Shown piece by piece: positions 2,393 through 28,831 of a stretch of 64,000 nucleotides of DNA; within the stretch, counting starts at the first letter, position 1, and each line of letters begins with the position of its first letter. The notes beneath the pieces were generated by a model. It was given only the letters and a program-made list of their open reading frames with translations, made no database searches and was not told the origin of the DNA. The position numbers and the translations under genes are program-made. The DNA comes from an uncultured Gammaproteobacteria bacterium (GTDB lineage Bacteria; Patescibacteriota; Microgenomatia; Daviesbacterales; UBA10151). Where the stretch lies: contig CAYMZD010000002.1 of the NCBI GenBank assembly GCA_964394855.1, forward strand, positions 131,964 through 195,963, read 5' to 3'.

Positions 2393-2572
2393 TGGCAAAA
2401 AAGAGTAATTTTGTTAAAATTAAAGTTAAATTTAAAGTCCAAGAAAAAAATCGTTGTATGCGATGTGGTAGACCGCGGGCATATCTTCGTCGATTCGGTC
2501 TGTGCAGACTTTGTTTTAGAGATTTAGCTCATCAAGGGCAATTACCCGGGGTGAGGAAAGCGAGTTGGTGAA
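2393..2572 (+). CDS. rpsZ: 30S ribosomal protein S14 type Z (zinc-binding, 59 aa)
   Basis: Hand-translated ORF absent from track (below 60 aa): [59 protein letters not shown] with C-x2-C-x12-C-x2-C; sits exactly between L5 and S8. Confidence 0.8.
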
Positions 2573-2953: not shown

Positions 2954-2954
2954 T

Positions 2955-3509: not shown

Positions 3510-3512
3510 ACA

Positions 3513-7283: not shown

Positions 7284-7311
7284 TTTTCCAGCTAAGAGTT
7301 GTTAAAATAAC

Positions 7312-7557
7312 TTGTTTATGGATGACACTATTGAGGTAGAAGGCAAAGTGGTTGAAGTTTTACCTAACACCTTATTTAGAGTAGAGATTGAAAAAAGTGA
7401 AGGCTTGCCCGAACTTATTGGGCGGATCATTTTATGTCATATTTCTGGGAAAATGAGGATGCACTATATTAGACTTTTGGCAGGCGATAGGGTCAAAGTG
7501 GAAATGTCGCCAAGGTATGATCTGGATAAAGGTAGAATCACCTTTAGATTAAAATAA
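7312..7557 (+). CDS. infA: Translation initiation factor IF-1
   Basis: 81 aa S1-like OB fold, [18 protein letters not shown]. Confidence 0.85.
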
Positions 7558-7572
7558 GAACCTGAATATAAA

Positions 7573-7689
7573 ATGAAAGTACAGGCAAGTATAAAAAAAA
7601 GATGTAAATTTTGTAAAGTGGTCAAAAGGGAGGGCATTTTATATGTCATCTGCCCCCGTGACCCAAGGCACAAGCAAAGGCAAGGATAA
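7573..7689 (+). CDS. rpmJ: 50S ribosomal protein L36
   Basis: Hand-translated 38 aa: [38 protein letters not shown] (C-x2-C...C...H zinc ribbon); between infA and rpsM. Confidence 0.8.
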
Positions 7690-7692
7690 AAT

Positions 7693-8088
7693 ATGGCTAG
7701 AATTGCAGGAGTTGATTTACCAGAGGGAAAACGAGTAGATATCGGTTTGACCTATATTTTTGGTATAGGTCGCTCTAATGTGGTGGAAGTTTTAAAAGAG
7801 GCCAAAGTGTCATCAGCCAAAAGGATAAAGGATTTGACTGAAGAGGAAATTAATAAATTGCAAAAGGCGCTGGAGCGGTTTAAGGTGGAGGGTGATCTGC
7901 ATCAAGAGATACAGCAAAATATTAAAAGGTTAGAAGAAATTGGCAGTTACAGGGGACTTAGGCACAAGAGAGGTTTACCAGTCAGAGGGCAAAGAACCAG
8001 ATCAAATGCCAGGACTAAAAGAGGGAAAAGACAAACTGTGGGTACGGTGCGAAAAGAAGTAACGGCTAAAATGGGAGGAACTAAATAA
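7693..8088 (+). CDS. rpsM: 30S ribosomal protein S13
   Basis: 131 aa, [10 protein letters not shown]... typical of S13. Confidence 0.9.
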
Positions 8089-8486
8089 TGGCTAAACAAA
8101 AAATAGCAATTAAAAGAAATAAAAAACAGACAGGAAAAACATTTACTGCGGGTAGAGTTTATGTTACTGCTACCTTTAATAATACTTTAGTGACATTGAC
8201 CGATACCACTGGTGATACTCTGTCCTGGAATTCTTCTGGTGCAGCCGGTTTTAAAGGAGCCAGGAAGGCTACTCCCTTTGCTGCTATTTCAGCGGTAGAG
8301 GTAATTGCCCAGAAAGCAAGAGAGTTGGGAATGAAGGCAGTTGAAGTATTTATCAAAGGTCCTGGTCCGGGAAGAGATGCAGCCATCAGAGCCCTAAGAG
8401 GCGCAGGTATAAATATTACCATGATTGCTGATGTCACACCCATTCCCCACAATGGTCCCAGAGCCAAAAAAAGGAGACGGGTATAA
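8088..8486 (+). CDS. rpsK: 30S ribosomal protein S11
   Basis: 132 aa S11-like. Confidence 0.9.
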   Translation: MAKQKIAIKRNKKQTGKTFTAGRVYVTATFNNTLVTLTDTTGDTLSWNSSGAAGFKGARKATPFAAISAVEVIAQKARELGMKAVEVFIKGPGPGRDAAIRALRGAGINITMIADVTPIPHNGPRAKKRRRV

Positions 8487-9088
8487 TGGCACGTTATATT
8501 GGACCAAAAAGAAGATTATCAAGGCGAGAAGGGATGGCTTTATTTGCTAAAGATGCTAGAGCACTAGAGCGAAAAGGGATAGTTCCACCAGGTCAACACG
8601 GTTTGGGAAGACGTAGAAGAGCTTCCGAATATGGGTTGCAACTTAGAGAGAAACAAAAAGCAAAAAGATTGTTTGGTATTTTGGAGAGGCAATTTAGAAG
8701 ATATTTTAAAGAGGCAAGTAAAGTTAAAGGGGCAACAGGTAAGGCACTTCTTGAAATACTGGAAACAAGATTAGATAATGTAGTATATAGGCTGGGTTTT
8801 ACTAAAAGTCGGGCAGAAGCAAGGCAATTAGTTAGCCATGGGCATATTACAGTAGATGGCCAAAAAATTGACATCCCCTCATACAATGTTAAAGCAGGCC
8901 AAGTAGTTGCATTATCACCTAAATTAGTGGATAATATACAGGTCAAAAAGAACTTGCAGGAGGGGGTAACCTTGCCTGGGTGGCTTCAGAAGAAAGCTAT
9001 CAGTGGCAAGGTTTTAAAAATGCCCGAAAGGGAAGATATGGAACAATCGGTTGATGAACAATTAATCGTTGAGTATTATAGTCGTTAA
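8486..9088 (+). CDS. rpsD: 30S ribosomal protein S4
   Basis: 200 aa, MARYIGPKRRLSRREG... plus S4 RNA-binding domain. Confidence 0.9.
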   Translation: MARYIGPKRRLSRREGMALFAKDARALERKGIVPPGQHGLGRRRRASEYGLQLREKQKAKRLFGILERQFRRYFKEASKVKGATGKALLEILETRLDNVVYRLGFTKSRAEARQLVSHGHITVDGQKIDIPSYNVKAGQVVALSPKLVDNIQVKKNLQEGVTLPGWLQKKAISGKVLKMPEREDMEQSVDEQLIVEYYSR

Positions 9089-9095
9089 TTGATAT

Positions 9096-10001
9096 ATGTT
9101 TAAAGTTAAGAAAGAATTAGAAAAAGGAAACTTTGTGAAGTTTGTATTGGAACCTTTAGAGGCTGGTTTTGGTCATACCCTTGGTAACAGTTTAAGGAGG
9201 GTGCTTTTAACTTCTCTAGATGGAGCAGCAGTGACCTCTGTTAGAATAGAGGGGGTGGCACATCAATTTTCCACTATTGCAGGAGTAAGTGAGGATGTGA
9301 CAGAGATTCTTTTGAATATTAAAAAACTTAGAATCAAGCTGCATTCTGATAAACCAATCAAATTAACACTAAAAGTATCAGGTAAGAAAGAAGTTACCGT
9401 CAAAGATATAGAAGTTTTGGGTGACGGAGAAGTAGTTAATCTAGATCAACATATTGCTACTTTAAATAGTGCCAATGCTAAACTCAATATGGAGATGACT
9501 GCAGAAGCTGGCAAGGGTTATTCAATATCAGATGAGCGTAAATTAAATGAAATAGGTCTAATTGCTGTGGATGCGCTTTTTTCTCCAGTGTTAGATGTCA
9601 ATTATAGCATTGAATCAACCCGGGTGGGTAGAAGAACTGACTTAGACAAGCTAATTTTAGAGATTACCACTGATGGTACCATGACACCTCAAGAGTCTTT
9701 AGAAGAGGCAGCCAAAATTCTTTCCCTCTCCTTTAAACAAATCTTCGAGCCTATAGTCGAAGTGGAAGATGATGGTTTAAAAAGCCAAGGTGCAGTTTTT
9801 GATGAGGTTTTAAAGATGAGTGTAGAAGAGATTGACTTACCTGTCCGTATCACCAATGCCCTAAAAGCTATTGATATAAATACTATTGAGGATTTGATAA
9901 AAATGCCAAGAGGACAACTTTTGAAAGCCAAAAACTTAGGTACCAAATCTTTAAGTCTTATTTCAGAAAAACTTTCAGAGAGGGGGTTGTCCCTCCAGTG
10001 A
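9096..10001 (+). CDS. rpoA: DNA-directed RNA polymerase subunit alpha
   Basis: 301 aa, N-terminal dimerisation domain and C-terminal CTD. Confidence 0.9.
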   Translation: MFKVKKELEKGNFVKFVLEPLEAGFGHTLGNSLRRVLLTSLDGAAVTSVRIEGVAHQFSTIAGVSEDVTEILLNIKKLRIKLHSDKPIKLTLKVSGKKEVTVKDIEVLGDGEVVNLDQHIATLNSANAKLNMEMTAEAGKGYSISDERKLNEIGLIAVDALFSPVLDVNYSIESTRVGRRTDLDKLILEITTDGTMTPQESLEEAAKILSLSFKQIFEPIVEVEDDGLKSQGAVFDEVLKMSVEEIDLPVRITNALKAIDINTIEDLIKMPRGQLLKAKNLGTKSLSLISEKLSERGLSLQ

Positions 10002-10420
10002 GGCATAGAGTTTATGGTAGAAAACTTACGAGAAATAAAAATCAAAGAACTGCACTTTTTAAAAATTTAGTGCAAAGTTTAATTTTACACGGTAGTATTA
10101 AAACCACCGAGGCTAAAGTTAAAGCGGTCAAGGGCTTGGTTGATAAAATTATTAACCAAGCAAAAAGTCAAAACAGCAAAGTACAAACTTTTTTAACAAA
10201 CAAAGAAGTTAGGGAAAAACTGCTTAAAGAGATTATTCCCACCTTAAAAAATAGAAACTCTGGCTATACTTCTTTTGTGAGATTGGGCCCCAGAAAAGGA
10301 GATGGAGCTATGATGATGAGGATGTCTTTATTGGTCAACGAAGAAGAAAAGTTAACACCTTCCTTAAAAACTCGTGATGGACGATCTAGTAGAAACAAAA
10401 AACCAAAAACCAAAAAATGA
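9998..10420 (+). CDS. rplQ: 50S ribosomal protein L17
   Basis: 140 aa, MRHRVYGRKL... typical of L17. Confidence 0.85.
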   Translation: MRHRVYGRKLTRNKNQRTALFKNLVQSLILHGSIKTTEAKVKAVKGLVDKIINQAKSQNSKVQTFLTNKEVREKLLKEIIPTLKNRNSGYTSFVRLGPRKGDGAMMMRMSLLVNEEEKLTPSLKTRDGRSSRNKKPKTKK

Positions 10421-10809
10421 GCACGGTCAGATTATCAGCTAAAGATATTAGAAGGGAAAAACATGTCATTGATGCCAATGGTAAAATTTTAGGAAGATTG
10501 GCCACAGAGGTGGCCAGGCTTTTGCAAGGAAAACACAAGACATACTTTGTGCCCTATTTGGATACAGGAGATTTGGTGGTGGTAACCAATGCTGCCAAAG
10601 TAAAAGTTAGTGGTAAAAAAGCAACTGATAAATTCTATATCCGTCATTCAGGATATCCAGGGGGTTTAAAGGAAGAAAGTTTTAACAAGCTCATCAGTAG
10701 AAGACCAGAAGTTATTATTGAACATGCAGTCAAAGGGATGTTGCCTAAAAATAAATTGGGAAGAGCTAGATTTAAAAAATTAAAAGTTTTTGCTGGGGAG
10801 GAAGAATAA
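10417..10809 (+). CDS. rplM: 50S ribosomal protein L13
   Basis: 130 aa L13-like. Confidence 0.85.
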   Translation: MSTVRLSAKDIRREKHVIDANGKILGRLATEVARLLQGKHKTYFVPYLDTGDLVVVTNAAKVKVSGKKATDKFYIRHSGYPGGLKEESFNKLISRRPEVIIEHAVKGMLPKNKLGRARFKKLKVFAGEEE

Positions 10810-11208
10810 GTGGCTAATTCATATAGTGTTTCTGTGGGAAGAAGAAAAGAGTCAGTAGCCAGAGTAAGGCTTTTTTCGGGCAAAGGGGAAACAATTGTTA
10901 ATGGTAAAAAAATTAATGAATATTTTCCAGGAGAAGTGGCTAAAAAAACCTATCTGAAACCCTTTGAGGTTTCCAAAACTCAAGATAAATACTTCGCCAC
11001 TGTCAAAGTTGAAGGTGGGGGAATTTCTTCTCAACTAGGCGCTGTAGTACATGGAATTGCGCGTAGTTTAGCCAAAGCTGATGCGACCCAGTACAGAAAA
11101 CCATTAAAAATAGAGGGGTTGCTGACTCGTGACCCCAGGGCAAAGGAACGACGCAAATATGGTCATGCCCATAAGGCACGGGCTATGAAGCAATCACCCA
11201 AAAGATAA
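10810..11208 (+). CDS. rpsI: 30S ribosomal protein S9 (GTG start)
   Basis: 132 aa, C-terminal ...RKYGHAHKARAMKQSPKR typical of S9. Confidence 0.85.
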   Translation: MANSYSVSVGRRKESVARVRLFSGKGETIVNGKKINEYFPGEVAKKTYLKPFEVSKTQDKYFATVKVEGGGISSQLGAVVHGIARSLAKADATQYRKPLKIEGLLTRDPRAKERRKYGHAHKARAMKQSPKR

Positions 11209-11209
11209 T

Positions 11210-11794
11210 ATGGTAGCAGTGGATCAACCATTTATTGATTTTGAACTGTCTTTTTATGATCCCCAAACTAAAAAAGTGGGGAAAGTTTCACTGAGTAGTA
11301 TTCTCAAAAAAAAGGAGTGGTTTACTCTCTTTTTTTATCCGGCTGATTTTACCTTTGTTTGTCCAACAGAACTGGCAGACTTAGCCAAAAGATATCAAGA
11401 GTTTAAGAATGCAGATTGTCAAATTTATGCTGTTTCCACCGATACAGTTTATACACATAAAGCTTGGCTGGAAAAGGAAAAATTGCTGGAAAATGTTAAA
11501 TACCCGATGCTCTCGGATCATAGTGGAAAATTGTCACAGGAACTTTCAATTTTGGATGATAACGGTATGGCCCAGAGAGCCTATTACATCATTGATCCCA
11601 AAGGGGTGCTGCGAGCCATGCAAGTTGTCAGTGATAATATTGGTAGATCAGCTCAAGAAATTCTAAGACAGGTTAAGGCTTTAAAATATGTATCAGAACA
11701 TCCGGGTTTGGCGTGTCCTGCCAGTTGGGATATTGGTGAAAAAACTCTAAAACCCGATATTGCCATCTCCGGCAAGGTTTTTGAGAAACTGTGA
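11210..11794 (+). CDS. Peroxiredoxin (typical 2-Cys, AhpC/Tsa family)
   Basis: FTFVCPTE peroxidatic Cys motif and C-terminal resolving Cys region. Confidence 0.8.
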   Translation: MVAVDQPFIDFELSFYDPQTKKVGKVSLSSILKKKEWFTLFFYPADFTFVCPTELADLAKRYQEFKNADCQIYAVSTDTVYTHKAWLEKEKLLENVKYPMLSDHSGKLSQELSILDDNGMAQRAYYIIDPKGVLRAMQVVSDNIGRSAQEILRQVKALKYVSEHPGLACPASWDIGEKTLKPDIAISGKVFEKL

Positions 11795-11812
11795 GCAGTA
11801 AATCAGTGGTCT

Positions 11813-12559
11813 ATGGAGATACCTAAAACATTAGATCAATTAAATGAACAGTTAGATGGTTGGTCGGATATGTTAAAAGACCCATTATGGTATCAACAAG
11901 CTATGCCCATACTTTTAGATTGGTGGGAGAATTTCCCCAAGGATGAAACTAGAGAATTATTAAAGGATCGAATTTATCAATATTTTGCGGACAAATTAGA
12001 AAAAGGAGAAATTGTCCTTGGTCGTAAAGGACCAAATTTTGATCAGGAGAGGAAACCTGTTGACACTATCATTATTCATCACAGCAGCAGGAAACCGGGT
12101 GTATCTTGGCAAGAATTATCAGCCATTGGTTTTTTAAGACAATATGTTCATGATTACTATTTATATGATGACGTTTTTGATCAAGATACAAAAGATCAAC
12201 CTATCTGGTCCGGTCATTTTAGAGATGGTATCCAGGTATTTTATGCTTATCACTGGTTGGTTAGGATGAATGGTGAATCAGTTAGGTTGTTGGAGGATCA
12301 CTACTTGGGTTGGCATGCAGGTAATAGAGATGTTAACAGAAGAAGCATAGCTATAGTTTTAGATGGAGATTTTCAAAACAGTGAACCATCCCATCTATCC
12401 TTGGAAGGTGTTGCCAGACTAATGAGGGAACAGTATCCACATATTAAAACTGCCAAAATCTTAGGACATTTAGAAGTAAGTAAAACTGAATGTCCTGGTA
12501 GATTATTTTTACCTGTTTGGAAAAATAAACTACTTTCCAAATTCTTTGAGCCACAATAG
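11813..12559 (+). CDS. N-acetylmuramoyl-L-alanine amidase (Amidase_2/PGRP fold) with N-terminal extra domain
   Basis: IIIHHS...GWHAG...H..ECPG zinc-amidase motif pattern. Confidence 0.6.
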   Translation: MEIPKTLDQLNEQLDGWSDMLKDPLWYQQAMPILLDWWENFPKDETRELLKDRIYQYFADKLEKGEIVLGRKGPNFDQERKPVDTIIIHHSSRKPGVSWQELSAIGFLRQYVHDYYLYDDVFDQDTKDQPIWSGHFRDGIQVFYAYHWLVRMNGESVRLLEDHYLGWHAGNRDVNRRSIAIVLDGDFQNSEPSHLSLEGVARLMREQYPHIKTAKILGHLEVSKTECPGRLFLPVWKNKLLSKFFEPQ

Positions 12560-14162
12560 CATTGAAGTATGATGGATGATAAAATACTAGAGTTACGGGG
12601 TGTAGTTCATCGGTAGAACGCTCGCATGGGGTGCGAGAAGTAGCAGGTTCAATTCCTGTCACCCCGACCAAAAGTGAATCCGCAAGGCTGGCCGGAATTT
12701 GGCTCTGGCTGGGTGGGGTCAGCCAGAGCTCTGCAAAGCCCTGATTATATTTTGGGACAAGCCGCCGATCAGTTAAAAAGAAGTTCGAGCCGACAGTTTT
12801 TGCTCCGATTGCTAAATCGGAGCATGTATTTTTTGCGCGCGCGATTTTTGCGCACGATAGTGCGCTACCAATGAAGTTTTTGAAAGGTTCGAGCCAACTC
12901 GAACCATTTATGTTTATTTGTCCCAATTCTTCATTAATTTTTAATTTTTCTTCGAAAAATTCGTTCTTTTTTGACTTGTAAACTTCGGGTTCAATAATCC
13001 CTTCTAAATATCCATCAAGAAGTTTATTAAGTTTTATATCCATGTCTTTCAGTTCCAACTCCAATTTTTCAATGTTCTCATGAATGGATACAGTTTCTAA
13101 TTTTTTATCTTCCTCTAACCGTTTGTACCAGTCATTAGCCCACTCTTGGGGTAACGCTACATCGTCAATGGCTTTTCTAAATTGGGTTTCTAATTCCGGT
13201 TCTGAAATATATTTTTGAGTGCAAGGTTTTAACTTTTTAGTGCAACGGTAGTAAATATATTCTACAGTTCTATCGGTACCTTTATAATATTTCTTGTGAG
13301 ATTCAGCGGTGATGCTTGCCCCGCACTCTCCGCATTTTATCAAACCCATAAAGGCAAAGTTATATCTTCTTTTTTTGTGTCTGTCTCTAAACTTTAATTC
13401 TTGCTGGACTTTTTGGAATAACTCTTTTGAAATTATTGTTTTATGATTTCCTTCGTGATACTCTCCGTTGTACTCCATAATGCCAACATAAAATCTATTG
13501 GCTAAAATTCTTCTGATTTCGTTTATATGTAATGGCTTATTATTTTTTCTTTTAAGATGAAATTTATGGAGAAACAAAGCAATATCGGTAAATGTTTTGT
13601 TGCCTTCTGCAAATAATTCAAATGCCTTCTTAATTGCTTTTAATTTTTCCGGCTCAACATCTATCCCTCTAGTTTTTGGATTGTTAATATAACCATCAGG
13701 AGCTTTGCCAGGATAAACACCGTTTCGGAGTTTTTGACGTAACCCTCTTTTTACATTTTCCGATAAATTATCCACATAATACTTAGACTGTCCAAAAGCT
13801 ATATTTAACATGAATTTTCCTTGGGGAGTATTTTCAAACCAAGAGGTCGGAAACTTTAGATCAAGCAGTTTTCCGGTATCAAGAAGATAAATTATTTTCC
13901 CGCCATCAATACTATTTCTTGCTAATCGGTCGGGGTGCCAGGCGATAATCCCTCCTATCTGTTGTTTTTCTATCTTCTTTAAAACTTCTGCAAATTTCTC
14001 TCTGCCAGGAACCTTAGCTGTTTTTTCTTCTTCCACAAATTCAGTAATTTCCAAACGTTCTCTTTTTGCGTACTCCTTCAACTCCGCTATTTGAGCAGAG
14101 ATAGATAATATCTGTTTGTCTTTTTCTTCCCGAGATTTTCTGCAATAGGCTATGTATTTCAT
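12444..14162 (-). CDS. Large serine recombinase (resolvase catalytic domain + recombinase domain + zinc ribbon + coiled coil); C-terminal about 107 codons read through IR1, the tRNA and the antisense end of the amidase gene
   Basis: N-terminal YCRKS...Q catalytic motif as in TnpX/Ccr/SpoIVCA-type large serine recombinases, DRLARN region, CGECG...YYRC zinc ribbon, long coiled-coil; no in-frame stop until 12444. Confidence 0.8.
   Translation of the reverse strand: MKYIAYCRKSREEKDKQILSISAQIAELKEYAKRERLEITEFVEEEKTAKVPGREKFAEVLKKIEKQQIGGIIAWHPDRLARNSIDGGKIIYLLDTGKLLDLKFPTSWFENTPQGKFMLNIAFGQSKYYVDNLSENVKRGLRQKLRNGVYPGKAPDGYINNPKTRGIDVEPEKLKAIKKAFELFAEGNKTFTDIALFLHKFHLKRKNNKPLHINEIRRILANRFYVGIMEYNGEYHEGNHKTIISKELFQKVQQELKFRDRHKKRRYNFAFMGLIKCGECGASITAESHKKYYKGTDRTVEYIYYRCTKKLKPCTQKYISEPELETQFRKAIDDVALPQEWANDWYKRLEEDKKLETVSIHENIEKLELELKDMDIKLNKLLDGYLEGIIEPEVYKSKKNEFFEEKLKINEELGQININGSSWLEPFKNFIGSALSCAKIARAKNTCSDLAIGAKTVGSNFFLTDRRLVPKYNQGFAELWLTPPSQSQIPASLADSLLVGVTGIEPATSRTPCERSTDELHPVTLVFYHPSYFNAIVAQRIWKVVYFSKQVKIIYQDIQFYLLLNVLRFWQF
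12596..12670 (+). tRNA. tRNA-Pro (anticodon GGG), CCA encoded
   Basis: Cloverleaf folds by hand: acceptor CGGGGTG/CACCCCG, D stem GTTC/GAAC, anticodon stem CTCGC/GCGAG with loop ATGGGGT (U33, GGG, G37), T arm GCAGG-TTCAATT-CCTGT, discriminator A, CCA. Confidence 0.85.
12665..12767. repeat. IR1 left copy (103 bp), starts inside tRNA-Pro 3' end (CGACCA)
   Basis: Perfect reverse-complement of 14209-14311; contains internal hairpin GCTCTGGCTG-N8-CAGCCAGAGC at 12702-12729. Confidence 0.9.
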
Positions 14163-14208: not shown

Positions 14209-14395
14209 CGGCGGCTTGTCCCAAAATATAATCAGGGCTTTGCAGAGCTCTGGCTGACCCCACCCAGCCAGAGCCAAATTCCGGCCAGCCTTGCGGATTC
14301 ACTTTTGGTCGAGCTTTACAAAAAAATTCGAACCCGCTTTAAGTCGAATCGGTAGCCCGCCTTCGGCGGGCTTTTGTTCCGCTCGGCCTTCGGCC
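14209..14395. repeat. 187-bp composite repeat block: IR1 right copy (14209-14311) fused to IR2 left copy (14308-14395)
   Basis: Reverse complement equals 21405-21492 joined to 12665-12767 with 4-nt CGAC overlap; includes terminator-like hairpin AGCCCGCC-TTC-GGCGGGCT followed by TTTTGTT. Confidence 0.9.
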
Positions 14396-14659: not shown

Positions 14660-14899
14660 TTAATGTTCGGTATCTTTTCTCGAAATCGGATCGTTGCTAT
14701 TTATTGTATCTTTGCTTCTAATCTGCCCATGTTGATTTTGAGTAATTAACTCTCCTCCACCATTGTTTTGTAGAACATTTCTTCCGTAATTCTCTGCATC
14801 TCTTTGAGTATCGAAGATACGAGAGGCTCTCTCGGCTCCTTCTTTCTGTGCTTTCCACTGATCACTATCTGGAGATATCCAAATATTTTTACTTGCCAT
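14660..14899 (-). CDS. DUF2188-family small protein (79 aa from internal ATG)
   Basis: MASKNIWISPDSDQWKAQKEGAERASRIFDTQRDAENYGRNV... matches DUF2188 pattern; strong SD AAAGGGGGTGGGG 7 nt upstream of ATG at 14899. Confidence 0.55.
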   Translation of the reverse strand: MASKNIWISPDSDQWKAQKEGAERASRIFDTQRDAENYGRNVLQNNGGGELITQNQHGQIRSKDTINSNDPISRKDTEH

Positions 14900-15833
14900 T
14901 CTTTTCCCCACCCCCTTTAATAAGTTCTTCAATCTTTTTCTTCCAACCGACGCGATGTATTACCCGGGCTTTTTGTAATTTTTCATTCAATATTTCCGCC
15001 TTTGTTTTTTTGGATATCTCTTCCCACAATTCACTGAGCACATAAGTTGCATTACCGTAATACATGCTTTCTAAGACATAGAGCTTGTTTTCTGTAAAGC
15101 CATGCACAATATAACCATGAAATCCTCCAGTCCCGATGGCTCTAAAATCCGGCTTAAGCGCGTTTACGGTTTTCAAACGATAGTAGAGTATTTGCTGATT
15201 TCCCCTTGGCGCACTTTTAACTATTGGCTCTACCTCTTTTCTAAATTTTTCCCATGGCATCTCTCCTTGCGGAAGCACTACCCAGTTGAGTCTTTTTAAA
15301 GGAGTCTTTAGAATTACTTCCAAATTTTCAGTAAAAAATTCACACTCTCCAAAATATTCAAGGAATAAGTTTACAACATGTTTTAAAACTTTATTGTTCT
15401 CTTCTGTTTTTTCTAGTGCTGGTGCAGTTAGTAAAAATATATCTTCCGCATTCAGAGATAGCATAAGCTCAATTGAGGGTGGAGGTATGAAGGAACGAGG
15501 ATATCTTTTGTAAGGAACATCGACAATTTTGGATTGTTCAACTCTATATGGACCATGCCATTCCGTCCAATGCCAATCAATTTGCCTGTAAGCGGTTTCC
15601 ATTGGCGAATCTTTATGTTTAATTATCTTACCTTCTGCATTATACTTACTAATATTTCCAAGCGATGCTGGAAGGATAGATTGTCCTTTTTGATAAGGCT
15701 CTAAAAAACCTAGGCGTTTTAAAGTTGTGGAAAATCTTAAAGGATCAGTAATGCCAATAATAATTTTAGAGCCATTTTGGATATGGCTAATATATGGAGA
15801 TATGTTTCGAATACGCTTTTTCTGTATAATCAT
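14889..15833 (-). CDS. Hypothetical protein (314 aa), no recognisable family
   Basis: Long ORF, divergent from lexA-like gene, co-directional and overlapping by 11 nt with DUF2188 gene. Confidence 0.5.
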   Translation of the reverse strand: MIIQKKRIRNISPYISHIQNGSKIIIGITDPLRFSTTLKRLGFLEPYQKGQSILPASLGNISKYNAEGKIIKHKDSPMETAYRQIDWHWTEWHGPYRVEQSKIVDVPYKRYPRSFIPPPSIELMLSLNAEDIFLLTAPALEKTEENNKVLKHVVNLFLEYFGECEFFTENLEVILKTPLKRLNWVVLPQGEMPWEKFRKEVEPIVKSAPRGNQQILYYRLKTVNALKPDFRAIGTGGFHGYIVHGFTENKLYVLESMYYGNATYVLSELWEEISKKTKAEILNEKLQKARVIHRVGWKKKIEELIKGGGEKNGK

Positions 15834-15912
15834 TTTTATAATAACCGTTTTTCTTAGACAGTAAGAAATCTATACTTGACATTATTATAACAGATGTGGT
15901 AGGATTTACAAG

Positions 15913-15932
15913 GTGGTAAATAATAACCACCT
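15913..15932. promoter_or_regulatory. Inverted repeat GGTGGT-N8-ACCACC immediately upstream of lexA-like start; intergenic region also has three direct copies of ATAATAAC(C)
   Basis: Seen directly; candidate operator or SD-sequestering hairpin in the divergent promoter region 15834-15935. Confidence 0.35.
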
Positions 15933-15935
15933 ATT

Positions 15936-16559
15936 ATGCAATATTTACCCTCAAAAACAGAAAAAGTTTTACAAACTCTTATTCAATTCCAAAACAAAAA
16001 CGGTTACTCTCCTTCGATAACAGAGTTAAAAACTATCGTTGGAAATAAATCCACGCGCGGAATTGTTTTGCAATTAGATAAACTGCAGAAACTGGGTTAT
16101 ATCCAGCGTGAAAAAAACTCGAGGCGGGCAATTAAAATATTACGTAAGCCCATAAAAATTAATAAGGAAACTATGATTAATGTTCCTGTCCTTGGCGAGA
16201 TTAGGGCCGGCTATGGTTCTTTGGCTGAACAAAATATTGAAGGCTATGAAAAGATTCCCCTACTCTTGGCGAAAGGTCAAAGAGATGTCTTCATACTTCG
16301 GGTCAAAGGGACAAGTATGTTAAAAGCGGGCATAAATCCAGGAGATTTAGCCATAATAGCACCACAAAACAACGCTAATAACGGAGACATTGTAATTGCT
16401 TTTGATCCAGATGATGAAACAGCAACGCTAAAAAGATTTAAGCGATTGCAAGATTATGTTATGCTTTTACCAGAAAGCGATGATCCAAGTTATCAGCCTA
16501 AAATCGGAAAACAATTTGTAATACAAGGTAAATTTATAGACTTATTAAGAAAAAACTAA
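15936..16559 (+). CDS. LexA-family repressor (winged-helix DNA-binding domain + S24 peptidase domain)
   Basis: N-terminal LexA DNA-binding domain (GYSPSITELKTIVGNKSTRG...LQKLGYIQRE...RAIKIL), Ala-Gly cleavage site (IRAGYG), catalytic Ser in GTSM and Lys in KRFKR. Confidence 0.75.
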   Translation: MQYLPSKTEKVLQTLIQFQNKNGYSPSITELKTIVGNKSTRGIVLQLDKLQKLGYIQREKNSRRAIKILRKPIKINKETMINVPVLGEIRAGYGSLAEQNIEGYEKIPLLLAKGQRDVFILRVKGTSMLKAGINPGDLAIIAPQNNANNGDIVIAFDPDDETATLKRFKRLQDYVMLLPESDDPSYQPKIGKQFVIQGKFIDLLRKN

Positions 16560-16564
16560 CTCTT

Positions 16565-18463
16565 ATGATTTTTAAACCTGCCATAAATAATTCAAAAAAG
16601 ATTTTCTCAATATACAATTCTCTTTCTTCAAGTGGCTTATCAGATGCTCAAATAATTAGTGCCCTTTTAAATTTGTTGAAGACAAAAAATATTGATAATG
16701 ACCTGACGTTGCTCGTTTTATTTTCTGATCTCTACACAAATCATAATTTAGATTTTATTAGTGTAATAGAATTAATTGGCCTTGCTCACCAAAAAGCTAA
16801 AGAAAAATCCTCCATTTCAGGCACTGATGAAAGAAAACATAATGGGATCTACTATACTAATTATTCCATTGCTAAACGAATAGCCGAAGAAACTCTTTCT
16901 TTTTATGGTAAAGATTTTGATCCTGCCAAAAATAAATTTCTTGAACCCTGTGCCGGAACGGGGATATTTGGGATTGCTTATTTAGATACAATTTTTCAGT
17001 TAGATAAAAAGTATATTTTAAATGCACAAAATATTATAAATAATATGTTTTTTGCTGACATAGACGGAGAAGCTATTGCATTGTTAAAAACAATTATTAA
17101 TCTTTATCTTAAAGCAAAATATTCTGTTAACGCATCAGTACCGGATAAAAATATCTTTATTGGCAACGTCCTATTTAGAAATAATACTGATGGGTCTATA
17201 TCAAAAAATGATCTTACAATTCAATTCAATATAAAAGATGGGTTCGATGTAGTATTAACAAACCCTCCTTACAAATTACTTAAGGCAAATTCAAACAAGT
17301 ATAATGAGGTTACGGACAATTACAAAGATGAGATAACAAAAATATTGGATTTTATTAGAAAACACAATGCTTATAAATTTAATTCAGGTACTTTAAATCT
17401 TTATAAACTTTTTGTTGAAGAAATTCTCGAAAATTATACTAAAAAAGATGGCAAGATAGGATTGCTTATTCCATCTACATTACTTAGTGATAAACAAAGT
17501 TACGAATTAAGAAAAAGAATACTTGAGAATTACTACCTCTCAACAATATATACGATTCCAGAAAAAAATAACTTCTTTTTAGATATTAGCCAAGCATTCT
17601 GTTTTTTTTCCCTAGATAAAAGTAATTCTTCGGGTGAATTAATACTAAAAACAAATGTATCCGATGTGGGAGGGTTTAATAAAGAAAATATATCCGTAAG
17701 CAAAATGCGGATAAGTATGATTTCCACCTTACAGGAAATAATTTCTACCGACAAAATAGGCTGGCAGATCTTAAATAAGATGCACAAAAATAAAAAACTT
17801 AAAGAGATTTCATCTATTACTAATTTAAGAGGCGAACTCGATTTAACTCTGGATAAAAAATTCATCATAAATGAAGGAAGTGAATATAATCTCCTTCGTG
17901 GTAATGGAATAAAGGAGTTTATTTTCAGTAAAGACAATCTATTTGTTGATAATAAATTTATTAACAAATTAAACGGAAAAGCAAAATTTTTATTATCAGA
18001 GAGAATAGTATGCCAACAAATATCAAATATAAATCTTACAAAGAGATTAAAGTTCTCTAAAGTGCCCAAAAATATTGTTTTAGGAAACTCTTGTAATTTC
18101 ATTGTCACAAATTCAGATACTCTATTCTTGGAATCCAATATTAGCCTAGATTATTTACTGGGCGTTCTTAATTCATTTCTCTTAAACTGGCGGTTTCAAT
18201 TAACTAGCTCCAACAATCACATAGGCAACTATGAATTAGACGAACTTCCTTTGGCGATTCCTGACTTAAAACAAAAATCAATAGTAGAGGATTTTGTTGA
18301 TAAACTTGTTGAAGATCCAAACAATAATGAATATAAAGTTAAATTAAATGTTGCAGTATTTGATATATATGGATTAGACCATGAAGAAGCTTTATACATA
18401 TTAGATAAGCATCGAAAAAACGATGTGGCAGAATTAACAGGTAAATATATGCATCAACTATGA
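16565..18463 (+). CDS. N6-adenine DNA methyltransferase, gamma class (motif X - I - IV order), with C-terminal target-recognition region
   Basis: GIYYTNYSIAKRI (motif X), EPCAGTGIFG (motif I), NPPY (motif IV); starts 5 nt after lexA-like stop. Confidence 0.8.
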   Translation: MIFKPAINNSKKIFSIYNSLSSSGLSDAQIISALLNLLKTKNIDNDLTLLVLFSDLYTNHNLDFISVIELIGLAHQKAKEKSSISGTDERKHNGIYYTNYSIAKRIAEETLSFYGKDFDPAKNKFLEPCAGTGIFGIAYLDTIFQLDKKYILNAQNIINNMFFADIDGEAIALLKTIINLYLKAKYSVNASVPDKNIFIGNVLFRNNTDGSISKNDLTIQFNIKDGFDVVLTNPPYKLLKANSNKYNEVTDNYKDEITKILDFIRKHNAYKFNSGTLNLYKLFVEEILENYTKKDGKIGLLIPSTLLSDKQSYELRKRILENYYLSTIYTIPEKNNFFLDISQAFCFFSLDKSNSSGELILKTNVSDVGGFNKENISVSKMRISMISTLQEIISTDKIGWQILNKMHKNKKLKEISSITNLRGELDLTLDKKFIINEGSEYNLLRGNGIKEFIFSKDNLFVDNKFINKLNGKAKFLLSERIVCQQISNINLTKRLKFSKVPKNIVLGNSCNFIVTNSDTLFLESNISLDYLLGVLNSFLLNWRFQLTSSNNHIGNYELDELPLAIPDLKQKSIVEDFVDKLVEDPNNNEYKVKLNVAVFDIYGLDHEEALYILDKHRKNDVAELTGKYMHQL

Positions 18464-19590
18464 TTCATAATCACATAACTTATCCATTGAGTGATCTAGA
18501 TATGCAAATGGTAATAGCCGTGCCACAAGGAGGCAATTGGCGCAATATTCCTCTCGACATTCCTTCAAAAAGACTCGAACAAATCAGAAAATCAGGCGGT
18601 AGAACTACACTGTATGGACGGCTTTCTTGGGATAGTCCAAGCTATACGGTAACTACTTATTTTAATCGTCCCGGAAATGGAACATATGTGCATCCCGAAC
18701 AAAATAGAGTTCTTAGCGCAAGAGAAGCAGCAAGACTACAATCATTTACAGATAGCTTCGTGTTTTCTGGTACAAAAGGAAGCTTGTGTATCCAAATAGG
18801 AAATGCTGTTCCACCATTAATGGCTTATTTTTTAGGTAAACAAATTAAAAAGCAAACAAACACAACTAATGTTGTTGACTTATTTTGTGGTGCAGGTGGT
18901 TTAAGCAAAGGATTTGAATGGGCAGGATATAATATTATTGCTGCAAACGATAACTATAAACAGGCATGCGAAACATATAAAATTAATCACCCACATACTA
19001 TTCTTATTGAAGGAGATATTACTAAAAAGATGGTGAAAGATGCTTTATTCGGAGCTATTAAAGACAAGAAAATAGATATCGTTATTGGAGGTCCTCCTTG
19101 TCAAGGTTTTTCTCATGCAGGGAAGAGGCTAGTAGATGATCCAAGAAATTTTCTTTTCAAAGAATTTGTTGAGATTGTAAAGAAAATAAAACCTAAGGTT
19201 GTTGTATTAGAGAATGTAGAAGGGATTCTAACAATGAATTATGGGAAAAGTTTTGAAAGCATAAAGGAGAGTTTCCGTGAACTAGGGTACAAATTGGATG
19301 GAAGAAAACTACATGCTGTTAAATATGGCGTGCCACAAAAGAGAAAAAGAGTTGTTATGATCGGTGTTTTGGAAGGAGATCCTAGCAAATGTTATCCGGA
19401 AGAGGTAATAAAAAATGAAAATCGATATTTAACTGTTCGGGAAGCAATAGATAATCTACCAGAAATAGTGGTAAATGGTGGTAACCATATTATAAGAAAG
19501 AAAACTAATCCAAAATCTGAATATCAAAAATTCTTAGCAGGCTTAACGGCAATAGAAGATTTTTCAGATTATTTGTCTGCAAGAAGTTAA
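18460..19590 (+). CDS. C5-cytosine DNA methyltransferase with circularly permuted motif order (IX-X then I-IV-VI-VIII)
   Basis: N-terminal SAREAARLQSFTDSF (IX) and QIGNAVPP (X), followed by DLFCGAGG (I), GGPPCQGFS (IV), ENV (VI), QKRKR (VIII), TVREAIDNLP; 4-nt ATGA overlap with upstream MTase. Confidence 0.8.
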   Translation: MIHNHITYPLSDLDMQMVIAVPQGGNWRNIPLDIPSKRLEQIRKSGGRTTLYGRLSWDSPSYTVTTYFNRPGNGTYVHPEQNRVLSAREAARLQSFTDSFVFSGTKGSLCIQIGNAVPPLMAYFLGKQIKKQTNTTNVVDLFCGAGGLSKGFEWAGYNIIAANDNYKQACETYKINHPHTILIEGDITKKMVKDALFGAIKDKKIDIVIGGPPCQGFSHAGKRLVDDPRNFLFKEFVEIVKKIKPKVVVLENVEGILTMNYGKSFESIKESFRELGYKLDGRKLHAVKYGVPQKRKRVVMIGVLEGDPSKCYPEEVIKNENRYLTVREAIDNLPEIVVNGGNHIIRKKTNPKSEYQKFLAGLTAIEDFSDYLSARS

Positions 19591-20756
19591 TAGATAAGTT
19601 TCTGCGATAATTTTTCAGCAACTAATTTAAAAATATTTCTTAGTTCCTCTAAGGCTTCGTTTTCTTTCTCTAATTTTAAATAATTTAGTAATACTTTCAG
19701 TTTTCCACGGATTTCATCGGTCTGCCAATCCTTTAAATGTCGGTTTGTTTTTGAAGAATATTCTAATAGTGATTCAAACGAAATTCTTATATATCTCTTT
19801 GCATTGTTTTTATATTGCTTTTTATTTCCTTCCACCTTAATCATTTCCTTATAGTATCCAGTTTTTGGATCGAAACCATCGAATTTAATAGAATAGTTTG
19901 CGTATTCGGGATGGAGAAAATTTTTAATTAAAAAGTTCTTGTGACCCTTTTGGTAGACTTCTGAAAAAATTGAAAGAACGTAGTGCATGTTTTCTCGCAT
20001 AAGTTTACTTGCCAGTAGAGCATCGGGTTCATTTTTAACATTGTGTTTTATCAAGTCCCATAATGCTTTTGAATGTTCGGAAATTACTTCCTGATTTTTC
20101 TCTTCTTTTATTAAGGCTTGAATATCACCTAATGTCATCCTATTGTTTCTTGCAGAATTGGCGGCTCTCGAAAGTGGCCTAAAACTCGGCCTATGTCTAA
20201 AACCTAATGAAATAGGACCAAGGTGATCAGCGCTTATGTCATTTTTTTGAAACTCTTTCATCAACCAGCTTGCTGCTTTCCAATCTCCATCAGACCAATT
20301 TTCATATGCACGTCTATCCTCGCCATATCTTGAAAGATTGCTTTTATGTCTTCCTTTATCGAATTTACTCCTGCAACAGAGGTTATAACTGTGATAACCA
20401 TCAAGCCTATCGGGAGCATTACTCATTGCTCCTGGACTAAGCCCTCCCTTTTTATTAGGATAAATATAATCAAGTTTCATTGATCTACCACAAATTTGGC
20501 AAGGTTTATCCCCAGTAGGATGAATTGCTCTCGCGGTTTTTGATATCCACGCACCCTCCTTAGGTATTCCAAGTTTTTCTCTCTGCTCATCCCACCATTT
20601 CAACCGGGCTAATCCCATTTCACTACTTCTGGCAACAATCCATCTTATTCCACCATTTTCCTTATACAGAAAAGGCATGCCTCTGTAATTAGGATGATTC
20701 ACAATAAATTTCATGTACTTAATGAAGTTTGGATGCCAAGTCCTTTTAGTTCTCAT
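19587..20756 (-). CDS. Putative restriction endonuclease (Cys-rich, possible HNH-like D-H motif), convergent with the MTase pair
   Basis: CQICG...NLCCRSKF...ADHLGPISLGFRH; stop codons of MTase (19590) and this ORF (19587) overlap; no confident family assignment from sequence alone. Confidence 0.45.
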   Translation of the reverse strand: MRTKRTWHPNFIKYMKFIVNHPNYRGMPFLYKENGGIRWIVARSSEMGLARLKWWDEQREKLGIPKEGAWISKTARAIHPTGDKPCQICGRSMKLDYIYPNKKGGLSPGAMSNAPDRLDGYHSYNLCCRSKFDKGRHKSNLSRYGEDRRAYENWSDGDWKAASWLMKEFQKNDISADHLGPISLGFRHRPSFRPLSRAANSARNNRMTLGDIQALIKEEKNQEVISEHSKALWDLIKHNVKNEPDALLASKLMRENMHYVLSIFSEVYQKGHKNFLIKNFLHPEYANYSIKFDGFDPKTGYYKEMIKVEGNKKQYKNNAKRYIRISFESLLEYSSKTNRHLKDWQTDEIRGKLKVLLNYLKLEKENEALEELRNIFKLVAEKLSQKLIY

Positions 20757-21404
20757 AAAATTTTGACTGCAAAGATTATCGCTAGCAATTATATAGCTTT
20801 TTGCTCCGAAATGCCAGAAAAAATGAATGTTTTTGTTTCTTTTTGGCGGCTCCGCCGCCCCCGCTCGCCTCCTGGGATAATTTCCCTTAAAGGAGGGCTG
20901 CCGTCAGAGAAAATCTCGGAGTTTGGAATTTTCTAAAAACTTTCGGATAGGCAGCCCGACATTCGCGAGCCCCGTGAGAATTACTACATTTTTTTAAAAG
21001 ACGGGGCGAGCCATCGGAATTAGTTGCGCAGTCCCGCCTCGAGGCGGGACAAGCGATAGGAAACAGAAGGGGTACAAATAAGAAAGGCGGGGGCGAAAAG
21101 CGGAATACCCCCGCAACGGCAGGCGATACTAAAACAGAACCAAAGATTACCAGAGACTGTAAAGCGAAAATAGAAAAGCAAAGATATCGGCGAGTCGCCC
21201 CCTAGGGCGACCTCTCGCCCAAAAGCGGGGGTGCCGCTTCCATTATTTTGGGTGGGTGGGTTAATGGGAATTTAGTACAGCCTACATTCTGCATTTTTGT
21301 TTTAAATATTTTTCTGCTAAAATAGGGAGGGTAGGCGGATTATAAATAATAAAAATCGCGCGCATTAAAATACTGAAAGTATTTTGCAAAAAATACTAGA
21401 GCGA

Positions 21405-21492
21405 GGCCGAAGGCCGAGCGGAACAAAAGCCCGCCGAAGGCGGGCTACCGATTCGACTTAAAGCGGGTTCGAATTTTTTTGTAAAGCTCGAC
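21405..21492. repeat. IR2 right copy (88 bp), right boundary of element
   Basis: Perfect reverse-complement of 14308-14395; contains hairpin AGCCCGCC-GAA-GGCGGGCT. Confidence 0.9.
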
Positions 21493-21581
21493 TGAAAGAG
21501 GGTTTCCGTCCGATCAGACCCGGATGTTTTCTAAACTTGACATTTTAGAGTCAATCTTGTTAGTATATAGATACTAAAATC

Positions 21582-22738: not shown

Positions 22739-22822
22739 GTGTAACATATATGTATGGATACACGAATACTTAGGAAAAGTTGGTACCTTGCAAAAAGTTT
22801 TATAGTGTGATTTAATCAATAT

Positions 22823-23893
22823 ATGGTTGGAAGTTCCAATAATGCAGATGCTAAATTAGCTGCTATTACGGCTGCCATAGCCGGTATCCAAAAACAATAT
22901 GGTACAGGTGCCATTATGCGCTTGGGTGAGCGGGTGGAGAGACTGACCATTGATGTCATCCCGACAGGCTCTATTGCTTTGGACTTGAGCTTAGGTGTGG
23001 GGGGTTTACCCAAAGGTCGAGTGATTGAAATTTACGGACCAGAGGCTTCTGGAAAGACTACCATAGCTTTACATGTTATAGCAGAGGCGCAAAAAAAAGG
23101 CGGGGTGGCAGCCTTTATAGATGCCGAGCATGCGCTAGATCCTCAACGCGCTCAAAAAATTGGAGTTAATTTAGATGACCTGCTGATTTCCCAACCTGAT
23201 ACTGGTGAGCAAGCTTTGGAAATTGCCGAAGCGCTGATCCGTTCTGGTGGGATTGATGTGGTGGTGATAGATTCGGTAGCAGCGCTAACTCCCCGGGCAG
23301 AAATTGAAGGAGAAATGGGAGATGCAGTGATGGGCATGCAAGCTCGGTTAATGTCACAAGCTCTTAGAAAGCTGACAGCTGCTATTGCTAATACCAGAAC
23401 GATCGTAATTTTTACCAATCAGCTGCGACAAAAAATTGGGGTGATGTTTGGTAATCCGGAAACAACCCCAGGTGGTTTGGCATTAAAATTTTATGCATCA
23501 GTTCGCCTAGATATTAGAAAAATTGAAAATATCAAAATGGGTGATGTGGTAGTTGGTTCGCGCCACAGGGTCAAAGTAGTTAAAAATAAAGTGGCTCCCC
23601 CATTTCGTATGGCCGAATTTGATATGGATGAAAATGGTATATCAAAAGAAGGCGAGCTTTTAGATATTGGTGTGGAGCTGGGAATTTTGACAAAATCAGG
23701 AGCCTTTATCAAATGGGATGATAATATTTTGGGGCAGGGTCGGCCGGCAGCTGTAGTTTATTTAAAGGAAAACCCCAAGGAAAAGGAAAAACTGGAAAAA
23801 GAAATTAGGGAGGCTTGGGGCGCGCAGAAACAAGGTAAGGAGATGGTTGTTGGAAAAGAAGAAGAGGATAAAGACATAGAAGAAGCAGTTTAA
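22823..23893 (+). CDS. recA: Recombinase A
   Basis: Walker [11 protein letters not shown]1/L2 loops, full-length similarity pattern to RecA. Confidence 0.9.
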
Positions 23894-28506: not shown

Positions 28507-28525
28507 TGGTATACTGTGTCCATAC

Positions 28526-28831
28526 ATGAGTAAACCTAAATTGGATGAGCAAAGCTCGCACGCTAAAAACATCAAAATTCCTCTGGAAGTTTTAAATGAG
28601 TTGTTAACTCCCAGCGAAGCTCGGATGTTAAAAAATCGCTGGCAAATCTTAAAACTTTTGGAAGATGGTTTATCAATTAGACAGGTGGCCAAAGAGGCCA
28701 AGGTCGGTACTGATACGGTTGTTCGAGTGGCCCGGATGTCTGATAAAAATTCTTTAAGAAAAGCTTTGGATAAAAATAGAGAATTAAATATTAAACCTAA
28801 AACCCCTTGGATTTTTGGCAAAAGTGAATAA
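28526..28831 (+). CDS. TrpR/YerC-YecD-like helix-turn-helix protein
   Basis: LTPSEARMLKNRWQILKLLEDGLSIRQVAKEAKVGTDTVVRVAR resembles Trp-repressor-like fold. Confidence 0.45.
   Translation: MSKPKLDEQSSHAKNIKIPLEVLNELLTPSEARMLKNRWQILKLLEDGLSIRQVAKEAKVGTDTVVRVARMSDKNSLRKALDKNRELNIKPKTPWIFGKSE

Follow-up and report, generated by a model that had tools for sequence, protein, structure and literature searches.

Restriction-modification (R-M) systems must keep methylation ahead of restriction, for which cells use C proteins, autorepression of the methylase, antisense RNAs or, in type I systems only, ClpXP alleviation. C proteins are activator/repressors of ~80–100 aa with an XRE-type helix-turn-helix (HTH); they are usually co-transcribed with the endonuclease gene and do not undergo proteolytic inactivation. 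In C-protein R-M systems the small autoregulated regulator gene comes first in the R-M operon and is believed to govern when modification and restriction are expressed and how they are balanced (PMC3874152). The same review of R-M regulation names no LexA-controlled R-M system. Here we describe a lexA gene that heads a DNA methyltransferase operon in Candidatus Daviesbacteria, a bacterium of the candidate phyla radiation (CPR)/Microgenomates. The analysed stretch of 64,000 nt (contig CAYMZD010000002.1, positions 131,964 to 195,963 of the forward strand) is hereafter called the window; its sequence is also that of NCBI contig JACQIZ010000003.1 in a Candidatus Daviesbacteria metagenome-assembled genome (GCA_016198205.1). 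The new finding is a recurrent and oriented linkage of lexA and methylase genes at an exchangeable defence hub in Microgenomates, and this recurrent layout suggests that the cells tie DNA self-protection to the DNA-damage signal. Literature searches for LexA together with R-M systems in CPR bacteria returned no such report; earlier work, such as that on the patescibacterial SOS response, may already describe a LexA motif or a link between LexA and DUF2188 for these bacteria.

With the C systems C.PvuII, C.BamHI, C.AhdI and C.Esp1396I the locus has in common that a regulator gene stands at the head of the R-M operon. Unlike the C proteins, the regulator in the window is a LexA of 207 aa with an S24 self-cleavage domain and without HTH_3, and it precedes the modification gene rather than the restriction gene. 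No C-protein gene is present in the cassette, and the list of open reading frames (ORFs) contains no other small HTH protein within 16560–20840. The core of the locus, including its N6-adenine (m6A) and C5-cytosine (m5C) methyltransferases, consists of the following features:

15876..15935, no strand: conserved bidirectional control region (promoter scan; homology with relatives begins at 15876)
15936..16559, plus strand: lexA, 207 aa (Pfam, NCBIfam, orthologue alignment, PDB match)
16565..18463, plus strand: m6A DNA methyltransferase of the Alw26I/Eco31I/Esp3I type, 632 aa (Pfam Eco57I, N6_Mtase and TaqI_C; TIGR02987)
18460..19590, plus strand: m5C DNA methyltransferase, circularly permuted, 376 aa (Pfam DNA_methylase, PF00145, E 1e-73, in two stretches)
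19587..20756, minus strand: type IIS restriction endonuclease of the Alw26I/Eco31I/Esp3I family, 389 aa (Pfam RE_Alw26IDE, E 1e-118)

A preliminary description of this DNA had read the 207-aa product as a genuine LexA with a LexA DNA-binding domain and an S24 domain, on which the Pfam, NCBIfam equivalog and PDB matches agree. The N-terminal winged HTH is matched by PF01726 LexA_DNA_bind over residues 1–65 (E 4.5e-9; 36.4 bits against a cutoff of 23.7) and the C-terminal domain by Peptidase_S24 (PF00717, E 9e-24), and the score for the NCBIfam equivalog TIGR00498 'lexA' (150.7 bits) exceeds the cutoff of 110.95. The best PDB match, Thermotoga maritima LexA (3K2Z), aligned over the full length (E 1e-24), and LexA proteins of Firmicutes are ~40% identical. 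The A-G cleavage site and Ser/Lys dyad are present as described: alignments of 22 and 28 orthologues show no variation at the cleavage pair A91–G92, at S127, which acts as nucleophile, or at K166, the general base. The two-domain architecture, the Ala-Gly site and the Ser/Lys dyad are common to this protein and to canonical SOS LexA (E. coli 1JHH, T. maritima 3K2Z; TIGR00498), and, as in the canonical setting, recA is present in the genome. With the catalytic residues and recA both present, autocleavage at Ala91–Gly92 is predicted to be stimulated by RecA on single-stranded DNA (ssDNA). A phage origin of this LexA clade is unsupported, as a scan of viral contigs yielded full-length matches of at most 32% identity.

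The spacing given previously was confirmed: the lexA stop codon TAA (16557–16559) lies 5 nt ahead of the ATG of the m6A methyltransferase (MTase) gene at 16565, and the m6A and m5C MTase genes overlap by ATGA (18460–18463). With intergenic distances of 5 nt and −4 nt and no promoter-like site near the lexA stop codon, in the 3′ end of the gene, lexA and both MTase genes are almost certainly co-transcribed, as far as such an arrangement can tell and as had been proposed. The promoter scan showed no promoter for the methylases of the window besides the one ahead of lexA. A feature absent from the preliminary description is the restriction endonuclease (REase) gene, which is convergent with the m5C MTase gene, so oriented that the two stop codons overlap, and has a promoter-like site of its own at 20817–20788.

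Alw26I, Eco31I and Esp3I are type IIS R-M systems with an m6A and an m5C methylase, one for each strand of the asymmetric site, and to our knowledge no lexA gene has been described ahead of the characterised members. The window shares with them the REase family (RE_Alw26IDE, 398 bits) and the pair of m6A and m5C methylases. It differs in scoring slightly under the NCBIfam trusted cutoffs (REase TIGR02986, 388 bits with a strict cutoff of 443.85; m6A MTase TIGR02987, 313 bits with a cutoff of 353.5), in having its methylases as two separate genes, and in the permutation of the m5C enzyme. In the translation of the latter, motifs IX–X (…HPEQNRVLSAREAARLQSF…QIGNAVPP) are followed by motifs I (DLFCGAGG), IV (PPCQGFS) and VI (ENV); as motifs IX–X precede motif I, the enzyme is circularly permuted. 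The expected Alw26I-type site GAGAC/GTCTC is mildly rare in the window, with 28 instances found versus 41 expected, which makes it the fourth lowest 5-mer. CTCAG/CTGAG is far more strongly avoided across the window (10 found versus 58 expected, ratio 0.17), and this avoidance suggests another R-M system of that specificity in the genome.

The contexts of lexA orthologues were gathered by exact-protein look-ups and a metagenome scan, and the domain calls were checked. In 14 of the 18 assessable Microgenomates loci, the window included, lexA is followed on the same strand by a DNA methylase gene in first or second place. LexA identity among the Microgenomates orthologues ranges from 46 to 94%, and at least nine different methylase architectures stand behind lexA. 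Given with the LexA identity, these include:

L094 (83%): the same IIS system (Alw26I-type m6A + m5C) as in the window
L100/L001 (94%) and L095 (81%): Vsr + m5C MTase
L003-6 (83%) and L109 (62% over a partial LexA): N6_N4 MTase
L093 (89%): HSDR_N-Eco57I type IIG enzyme
L013, from Levybacteria, and L098 (both 53%): 836-aa m5C-m6A fusion
L099 (55%): Eco57I-like N6 MTase
L101 (51%) and P0058 (52%): ParB-N6_N4 MTase
L255 (72%): two D12-class MTases
L258 (53%): one D12-class MTase

The gap between lexA and the MTase gene varies from 1 to 158 nt across the loci. Tail to tail with the MTase gene, its stop codon overlapping or abutting, follows a convergent gene in the window, L094, L100, L003, L013, L255 and L258. 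For the window, L100 and L013 the convergent gene could be assigned to an REase family; in L003, L255 and L258, where it has no family match, it is presumed to encode an REase. In no locus is an MTase the immediate upstream neighbour of lexA. Controls were 105 lexA loci of other phyla, comprising 71 loci of GTDB genomes (mostly Firmicutes), which came from a LexA-alignment scan of genomes with over-general back-translated patterns, and 34 metagenomic loci. Essentially none of these 105 loci has an MTase downstream of lexA. Among the 25 most frequent downstream families of the 71 loci there is no MTase (examples are Met gamma-lyase, RsfS and NAD synthase), and the genes downstream of lexA in the 34 metagenomic loci encode PP2C, rhodanese, GNAT and other proteins. 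With 14 of 18 loci against these controls, and with MTases never immediately upstream, the lexA-methylase linkage is positional, oriented and specific to the Microgenomates LexA clade, whose lexA genes, unlike those of the other phyla, consistently head a DNA methylase gene.

Ahead of lexA, two promoters are interleaved. The rightward promoter consists of TTGACA (15876–81), an N18 spacer and TGn-TAGGAT (15900–05), and its form TTGACA-N17/18-TGnTA..AT is kept across LexA identities from 46% to 94%. The leftward promoter has the −35 element TTGTAA (reverse complement of 15906–11) and the −10 element TATAAT (reverse complement of 15884–89); it is likewise kept in relatives, and in the Levybacteria-like group the element matching TTGTAA of the window is a perfect TTGACA. 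On the leftward side lie two genes:

14660..14899, minus strand: DUF2188 small protein (Pfam E 9e-18; PADLOC candidate PDC-S16, E 2e-19)
14889..15833, minus strand: 314-aa protein without family assignment, divergent from lexA

The best operator candidate for LexA is, judging by its position and conservation, the direct repeat GTGGTA-N11-GTGGTA, with units at 15896–901 and 15913–18 of the window. A per-sequence scan detected the direct repeat in 16 of 17 orthologous promoters, in which unit 1 overlaps the rightward −10 element and unit 2 lies 15–17 bp downstream; in the window the repeat brackets the leftward −35 element. Daviesbacteria-like promoters have GTGGTA as both units, and those of the other group have [A/G]GTAGA as both, the two copies changing together. 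In the 64-kb window the GTGGTA repeat occurs once, against 0.14 copies expected.

The motifs proposed earlier fared differently. The palindrome GGTGGT-N8-ACCACC is present, once, at 15912–15931, and no other perfect copy exists within the 64 kb, but it is not a conserved palindrome: all orthologous promoters keep the left arm, whereas one-sided changes erode the right arm (ACCACT, ACCATT, AATCAC, AAACAT), which is missing altogether in the more distant, Levybacteria-like group. The 'three ATAATAAC repeats' were overstated, as there are two exact copies (15838 and 15920) plus the variant ATTATAAC. One variant copy is the −10 element of the leftward promoter, and the octamer was rejected as an operator because it is not enriched in the window (6 found versus 4.1 expected).

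The idea that LexA exerts SOS or autoregulatory control over the R-M system is supported in part: the recurrent lexA-MTase layout speaks for it, and the operator motifs originally put forward for it do not. We give a slightly better than even chance to the reading that an accessory self-cleaving LexA is the damage-sensing controller of a mobile defence hub and raises methylase expression. The two interleaved divergent promoters would transcribe lexA-M(m6A)-M(m5C) rightwards and defence-type genes (for the 314-aa protein and DUF2188) leftwards, and LexA bound to GTGGTA-N11-GTGGTA would hold both at a low, autoregulated level. RecA-ssDNA filaments, arising from phage attack, other DNA damage or self-restriction of under-methylated DNA, would trigger the Ala91–Gly92 autocleavage, and methylase output would go up. 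Since the genes are convergent, with overlapping stop codons and no terminator between them, read-through from the MTase operon may in addition dampen the endonuclease gene. Upon entry into a naive cell the unrepressed promoter would allow a methylase burst before LexA accumulates. The predicted outcome is transcriptional restriction alleviation together with a safe-establishment circuit in place of a C protein.

For type I systems, restriction alleviation is outlined as a response to DNA damage or unmodified chromosomal sites that shields the host for a time against self-restriction (PMC4231737). The proposed LexA circuit has the same functional logic as this alleviation, which operates by ClpXP degradation of HsdR; the latter is post-translational and confined to type I, whereas the LexA circuit would be transcriptional and concern type II, IIS and IIG systems. 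If the proposal is correct, the LexA-headed methylase operon is a further solution to the problem of keeping methylation ahead of restriction, one that couples self-protection to the DNA-break signal, and restriction alleviation extends to type II systems.

Several observations weigh against LexA as a controller of the methylases. In 4 of the 18 loci there is no same-strand MTase: R-M genes adjoin lexA on the opposite strand in L256 and L257, no same-strand MTase was found in the sequence examined of L096, and the ORF list of the WWE3 locus L014 (LexA 39%), where neighbours were judged from ORFs alone, holds no R-M-like genes. The lexA-MTase spacers of several relatives carry an extended −10 element of their own (TGTCTATAAT, TGTTAGAAT), and in these relatives the methylase may be largely independent of lexA. 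The direct repeat could reflect binding of RNA polymerase and sigma factor, as its first unit sits on the −10 element and its second resembles one, and a rigid dimer would have difficulty with a unit spacing that varies between 15 and 17 bp. A core SOS role or a wider LexA regulon is possible too, the operator scan having covered the 64-kb window. As to the spacer elements themselves, they were seen in L100 (8625–8656), L013 (8616–8654), L098 and L093 and end 6–10 nt ahead of the ATG; such a position would imply leaderless or near-leaderless methylase transcripts and a basal promoter besides the read-through from lexA.

A second body of comparison concerns the leftward side. CapH/CapP is a pair of a repressor and an ssDNA-activated protease, which cleaves the repressor upon DNA damage; according to Lau et al. 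(bioRxiv 10.1101/2022.04.27.489752) it is located divergently upstream of operons for CBASS, the R-M-like DISARM, DUF2188, DUF3892 and the ubiquitin-like system '6a'. LexA occupies the same divergent upstream position as CapH/CapP (and also ImmR/ImmA, DdrO/IrrE and BrxR/CapW), and several cargo families are common to both. Unlike CapH/CapP, with its HTH repressor and separate IrrE/ImmA-type metallopeptidase, the regulator is one LexA/S24 protein unaccompanied by any metallopeptidase gene, and a methylase gene is additionally placed downstream in the lexA transcript. By analogy, LexA here looks like a one-protein analogue of CapH/CapP, and, if the damage-sensing role is true, it joins CapH/CapP and BrxR/CapW among the damage-responsive regulators of defence islands.

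DUF2188 is encoded divergently upstream of lexA in 6 of about 17 loci, immediately adjacent in L255, L256, L258 and P0058 and as the second gene in the window and L094. Other genes of the upstream slot encode DUF3892 (L094), DUF1508 (L003), a Multi_ubiq/ThiF/BubE ubiquitin-like system (L011), ThsB-TIR (L096), Shedu SduA (L256) and an OLD-family ATPase (L258). In L100 the slot (5233–7911) contains a UG13 defence reverse transcriptase (DRT) between a Cas4-like nuclease and a Cas2-like protein of 88 aa (phrog_1090). The small Cas2-like protein is apparently also the divergent neighbour of the 55%-identical lexA in L099 (155–412; N-terminal similarity). The 314-aa protein of the window has no Pfam, NCBIfam or PHROG match. 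Its homologues, ~50% identical, number more than 700 and come from Patescibacteria, Omnitrophota and Cyanobacteria; its confident AlphaFold2 model (pLDDT 87) gave no fold match in PDB or BFVD. Two of its homologues (83–85% identical) perhaps share contigs with two LexA homologues of 54% identity, which hints at a repeated linkage of the 314-aa protein to lexA.

These neighbours raise the possibility that the main target of LexA is the divergent defence operon (DUF2188, 314-aa protein), with the methylase as a passenger in the lexA transcript. DUF2188, DUF3892 and the ubiquitin-like 6a system are families under divergent control of the CapH/CapP type, and the promoters are interleaved, both of which fit such a target; but what lies upstream varies more between loci than the MTase downstream (DUF2188 in 6 of about 17 loci, the MTase in 14 of 18), and the idea is compatible with damage-sensing control of the methylases rather than exclusive of it. 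As an explanation on its own we regard it as very improbable. Control of both sides is contained in a wider form of the preferred reading, according to which a mobile LexA clade in CPR (Microgenomates) would be the dedicated damage sensor of an exchangeable hub, with R-M systems docking methylase-first behind it and abortive-infection-type genes (DUF2188, DUF3892, ubiquitin-like, DRT, Shedu) docking divergently in front. RecA-triggered cleavage would then switch both sides on, and C proteins would be replaced for type II, IIS and IIG systems. This generalisation is tentative, and we rate its chance as somewhat below even.

The exchangeable nature of the flanks is evident from BLASTN comparisons of the window segment 12000–22900. 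Homology with L100, L093, L095 and L003 starts at the −35 hexamer at 15876 and stops at the lexA stop codon (16558/9), so the conserved unit consists of promoter and lexA only (15876–16559) and both flanks are replaced. In the comparison with L100, a second conserved anchor of ~420 nt closes off the right-hand slot:

20841..21262, no strand: GC-rich structured non-coding element, right edge of the variable R-M slot

This element, with ~47% GC, has the REase promoter on one side and the right repeat arm on the other and is ~70% identical to positions 11101–11506 of L100. Its stems show compensatory changes, e.g. GTCGCCC/GGGCGAC versus GTCCCGC/GCGGGAC, and the folding z-scores of the two strands are −3.6 and −3.3. 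A match to an Rfam family was not found; the element may be a structured RNA or a right-hand recombination anchor for cassette exchange. Between the window and L094, which has kept the same R-M system, lexA and the methylase genes have co-diverged to near-saturated synonymous sites, which makes the lexA-R-M linkage old and stable.

The precise exchange behind lexA bears on the alternative, already raised in the preliminary description, that this is the host LexA with R-M genes inserted behind it. An ordinary SOS LexA of the host would lie at a recombination hot spot, where R-M systems land behind it and borrow its transcription without any selected regulation. Cassettes are indeed swapped exactly behind the lexA stop codon, between conserved anchors formed by lexA and the GC-rich element, and the MTase genes of many relatives have their own −10 element. 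An ordinary LexA also accords with the equivalog score, with the ~40% identity to LexA of Firmicutes and with the gradual fall of identity from 94% to 46% across Microgenomates, as expected from vertical inheritance. Upstream neighbours recurring across genera, a macro-domain protein in L094 and L013 and a 495-aa DUF2779-like protein in L013, L096 and L257, hint at a conserved chromosomal neighbourhood. The part of this alternative that probably does not hold is the core status of the gene, because lexA looks accessory: it resides inside a serine-recombinase element, a relative has no copy of it in the syntenic recA region, and its clade is rare compared with RecA.

In the window, ribosomal-protein operons (1–11800) are followed by an amidase gene, tRNA-Pro (12596–12670) and the element with lexA, beyond which lie genes for NYN and NUDIX proteins, recA (22823–23893), a PMT_2 membrane protein gene, recX and rny; recA is 6 kb downstream of lexA. 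In a Daviesbacteria relative with 86% RecA identity, the syntenic stretch from the ribosomal operon to recA-recX-rny carries genes for PGM, MetK and an acylphosphatase and contains no lexA, R-M or recombinase gene, and two other relatives have no lexA within 10 kb of recA. Simple insertion had been predicted to leave the same lexA-recA neighbourhood without MTases in relatives; instead, their recA neighbourhoods are without lexA altogether. The LexA clade comprises ~64 protein clusters among 5.8 billion sequences, versus more than 120 RecA clusters of the same lineage at ≥80% identity, and no LexA match comes from the large contigs of Daviesbacteria with recA (1.15 Mb, 770 kb, 512 kb and 339 kb). 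The nearest LexA reaches 94% identity and the nearest RecA only 88%. Inside the element, LexA is far more conserved than the recombinase: amino acid identity between the window and L100 is 94% versus 62%, with third-codon-position identities of 0.71 versus 0.48. Furthermore, neutral insertion would hardly yield the strict methylase-first order on the same strand, which holds for nine or more unrelated types of MTase, with no MTase upstream. We therefore consider an ordinary host LexA unlikely. Unlike canonical SOS LexA, the protein of the window has a patchy, accessory distribution and is encoded in a mobile defence island; if its proposed role is true, LexA in genome-reduced CPR bacteria can be an island-borne accessory gene instead of the core SOS master.

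A shared operator would be a further trait of a canonical SOS LexA, and none common to lexA and recA was found in the window: the candidate GTGGTA operator is absent at recA and elsewhere in the 64 kb. An 18-nt similarity between the regions upstream of lexA and recA (TAACA...GGAT) was rejected as a shared SOS box, since three relatives show a different conserved palindrome at recA. This palindrome, TGTAT[GG/CC]ATACA (12 bp), is absent from the lexA promoters. In three Daviesbacteria genomes it occurs upstream of recA, abutting the start of a Trp_repressor-family gene (28526–28831 in the window) and inside miaA, with sites at 22751–22762, 28514–28527 and 31496–31507 in the window, at 9928, 14239 and 20190 in L252 and at 2086, 8099 and 12480 in L253. 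The distribution suggests that recA belongs to the regulon of an autoregulated TrpR-like protein rather than to a LexA regulon.

The mobile element that surrounds lexA and the R-M genes is a unit of 8.8 kb beginning at the 3′ end of tRNA-Pro. Its components are:

12596..12670, plus strand: tRNA-Pro(GGG), 3′ end forming the left junction (site 1) of the element (ARAGORN, Rfam)
12444..14162, minus strand: large serine recombinase (Pfam Resolvase + Recombinase + Zn_ribbon_recom; PHROG integrase, E 1e-78)
12665..12767, no strand: inverted-repeat arm a, pairing with 14209–14311 (103 nt, 100% complementary) with the recombinase gene between the arms
14209..14395, no strand: central junction, in which arm a′ (14209–14311) abuts arm b (14302–14395), with its site at 14302–14311
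21405..21498, no strand: inverted-repeat arm b′, pairing with 14302–14395 (94 nt, 98%), right junction (site 3)

The left arm starts at 12665, within the last 6 nt of tRNA-Pro, and the recombinase ORF extends across the repeat arm and the tRNA gene, antisense to the latter. The second repeat pair (14302–14395 and 21405–21498) flanks the 7-kb lexA/R-M cassette. In reverse complement the central junction reads like an attP site, with right-end arm, core and left-end arm, and the core CGAC|C is common to the central junction, site 1 (12665) and site 3 (21489). The recombinase has weak NCBIfam matches of the CcrB/XisF-like kind. With Resolvase, Recombinase and Zn-ribbon domains encoded beside att-like junctions at a tRNA gene, the element resembles integrative elements of large serine recombinases; compared to their textbook attL/attR flanks with a short core, the window adds an internal inverted attP-like copy and two pairs of ~100-nt inverted repeats. 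The same double-repeat architecture is found beside tRNA-Glu in L100 (3351–11708), an independent assembly from another site, and so is no assembly artefact. There the recombinase-flanking pair measures 106 nt (98%) and the second pair lies at 5001–5101 and 11601–11708. The arms of L100 are only ~74% identical to those of the window, yet 90–98% identical among themselves. Near-identity within a genome combined with divergence between genomes suggests ongoing inversion or gene conversion.

In each of two independent genomes lexA lies in an inverted-repeat-bounded serine-recombinase element beside a tRNA gene, a setting that would also suit an immunity or maintenance repressor of the element, comparable to lambda CI or SXT SetR, which controls excision, inversion or transfer and for which the R-M genes are cargo or an addiction module. 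Orthologues adjoin a terminase gene in P0058 or genes of a type IV secretion system in L256, and a PHROG search of LexA returned phage repressors among its matches. We judge this explanation to be quite improbable. The recombinase gene is 1.7 kb away, behind two genes, and has no lexA-promoter repeat ahead of it; most orthologous loci (L003, L013, L094, L255 and L258) have no recombinase nearby. The DNA-binding domain is of the LexA type and not of the XRE/HTH_3 type usual for repressors of mobile elements, and the constant neighbour of lexA is a methylase gene instead of mobility genes. Regarding the recombinase itself, inversion would change its C-terminus.

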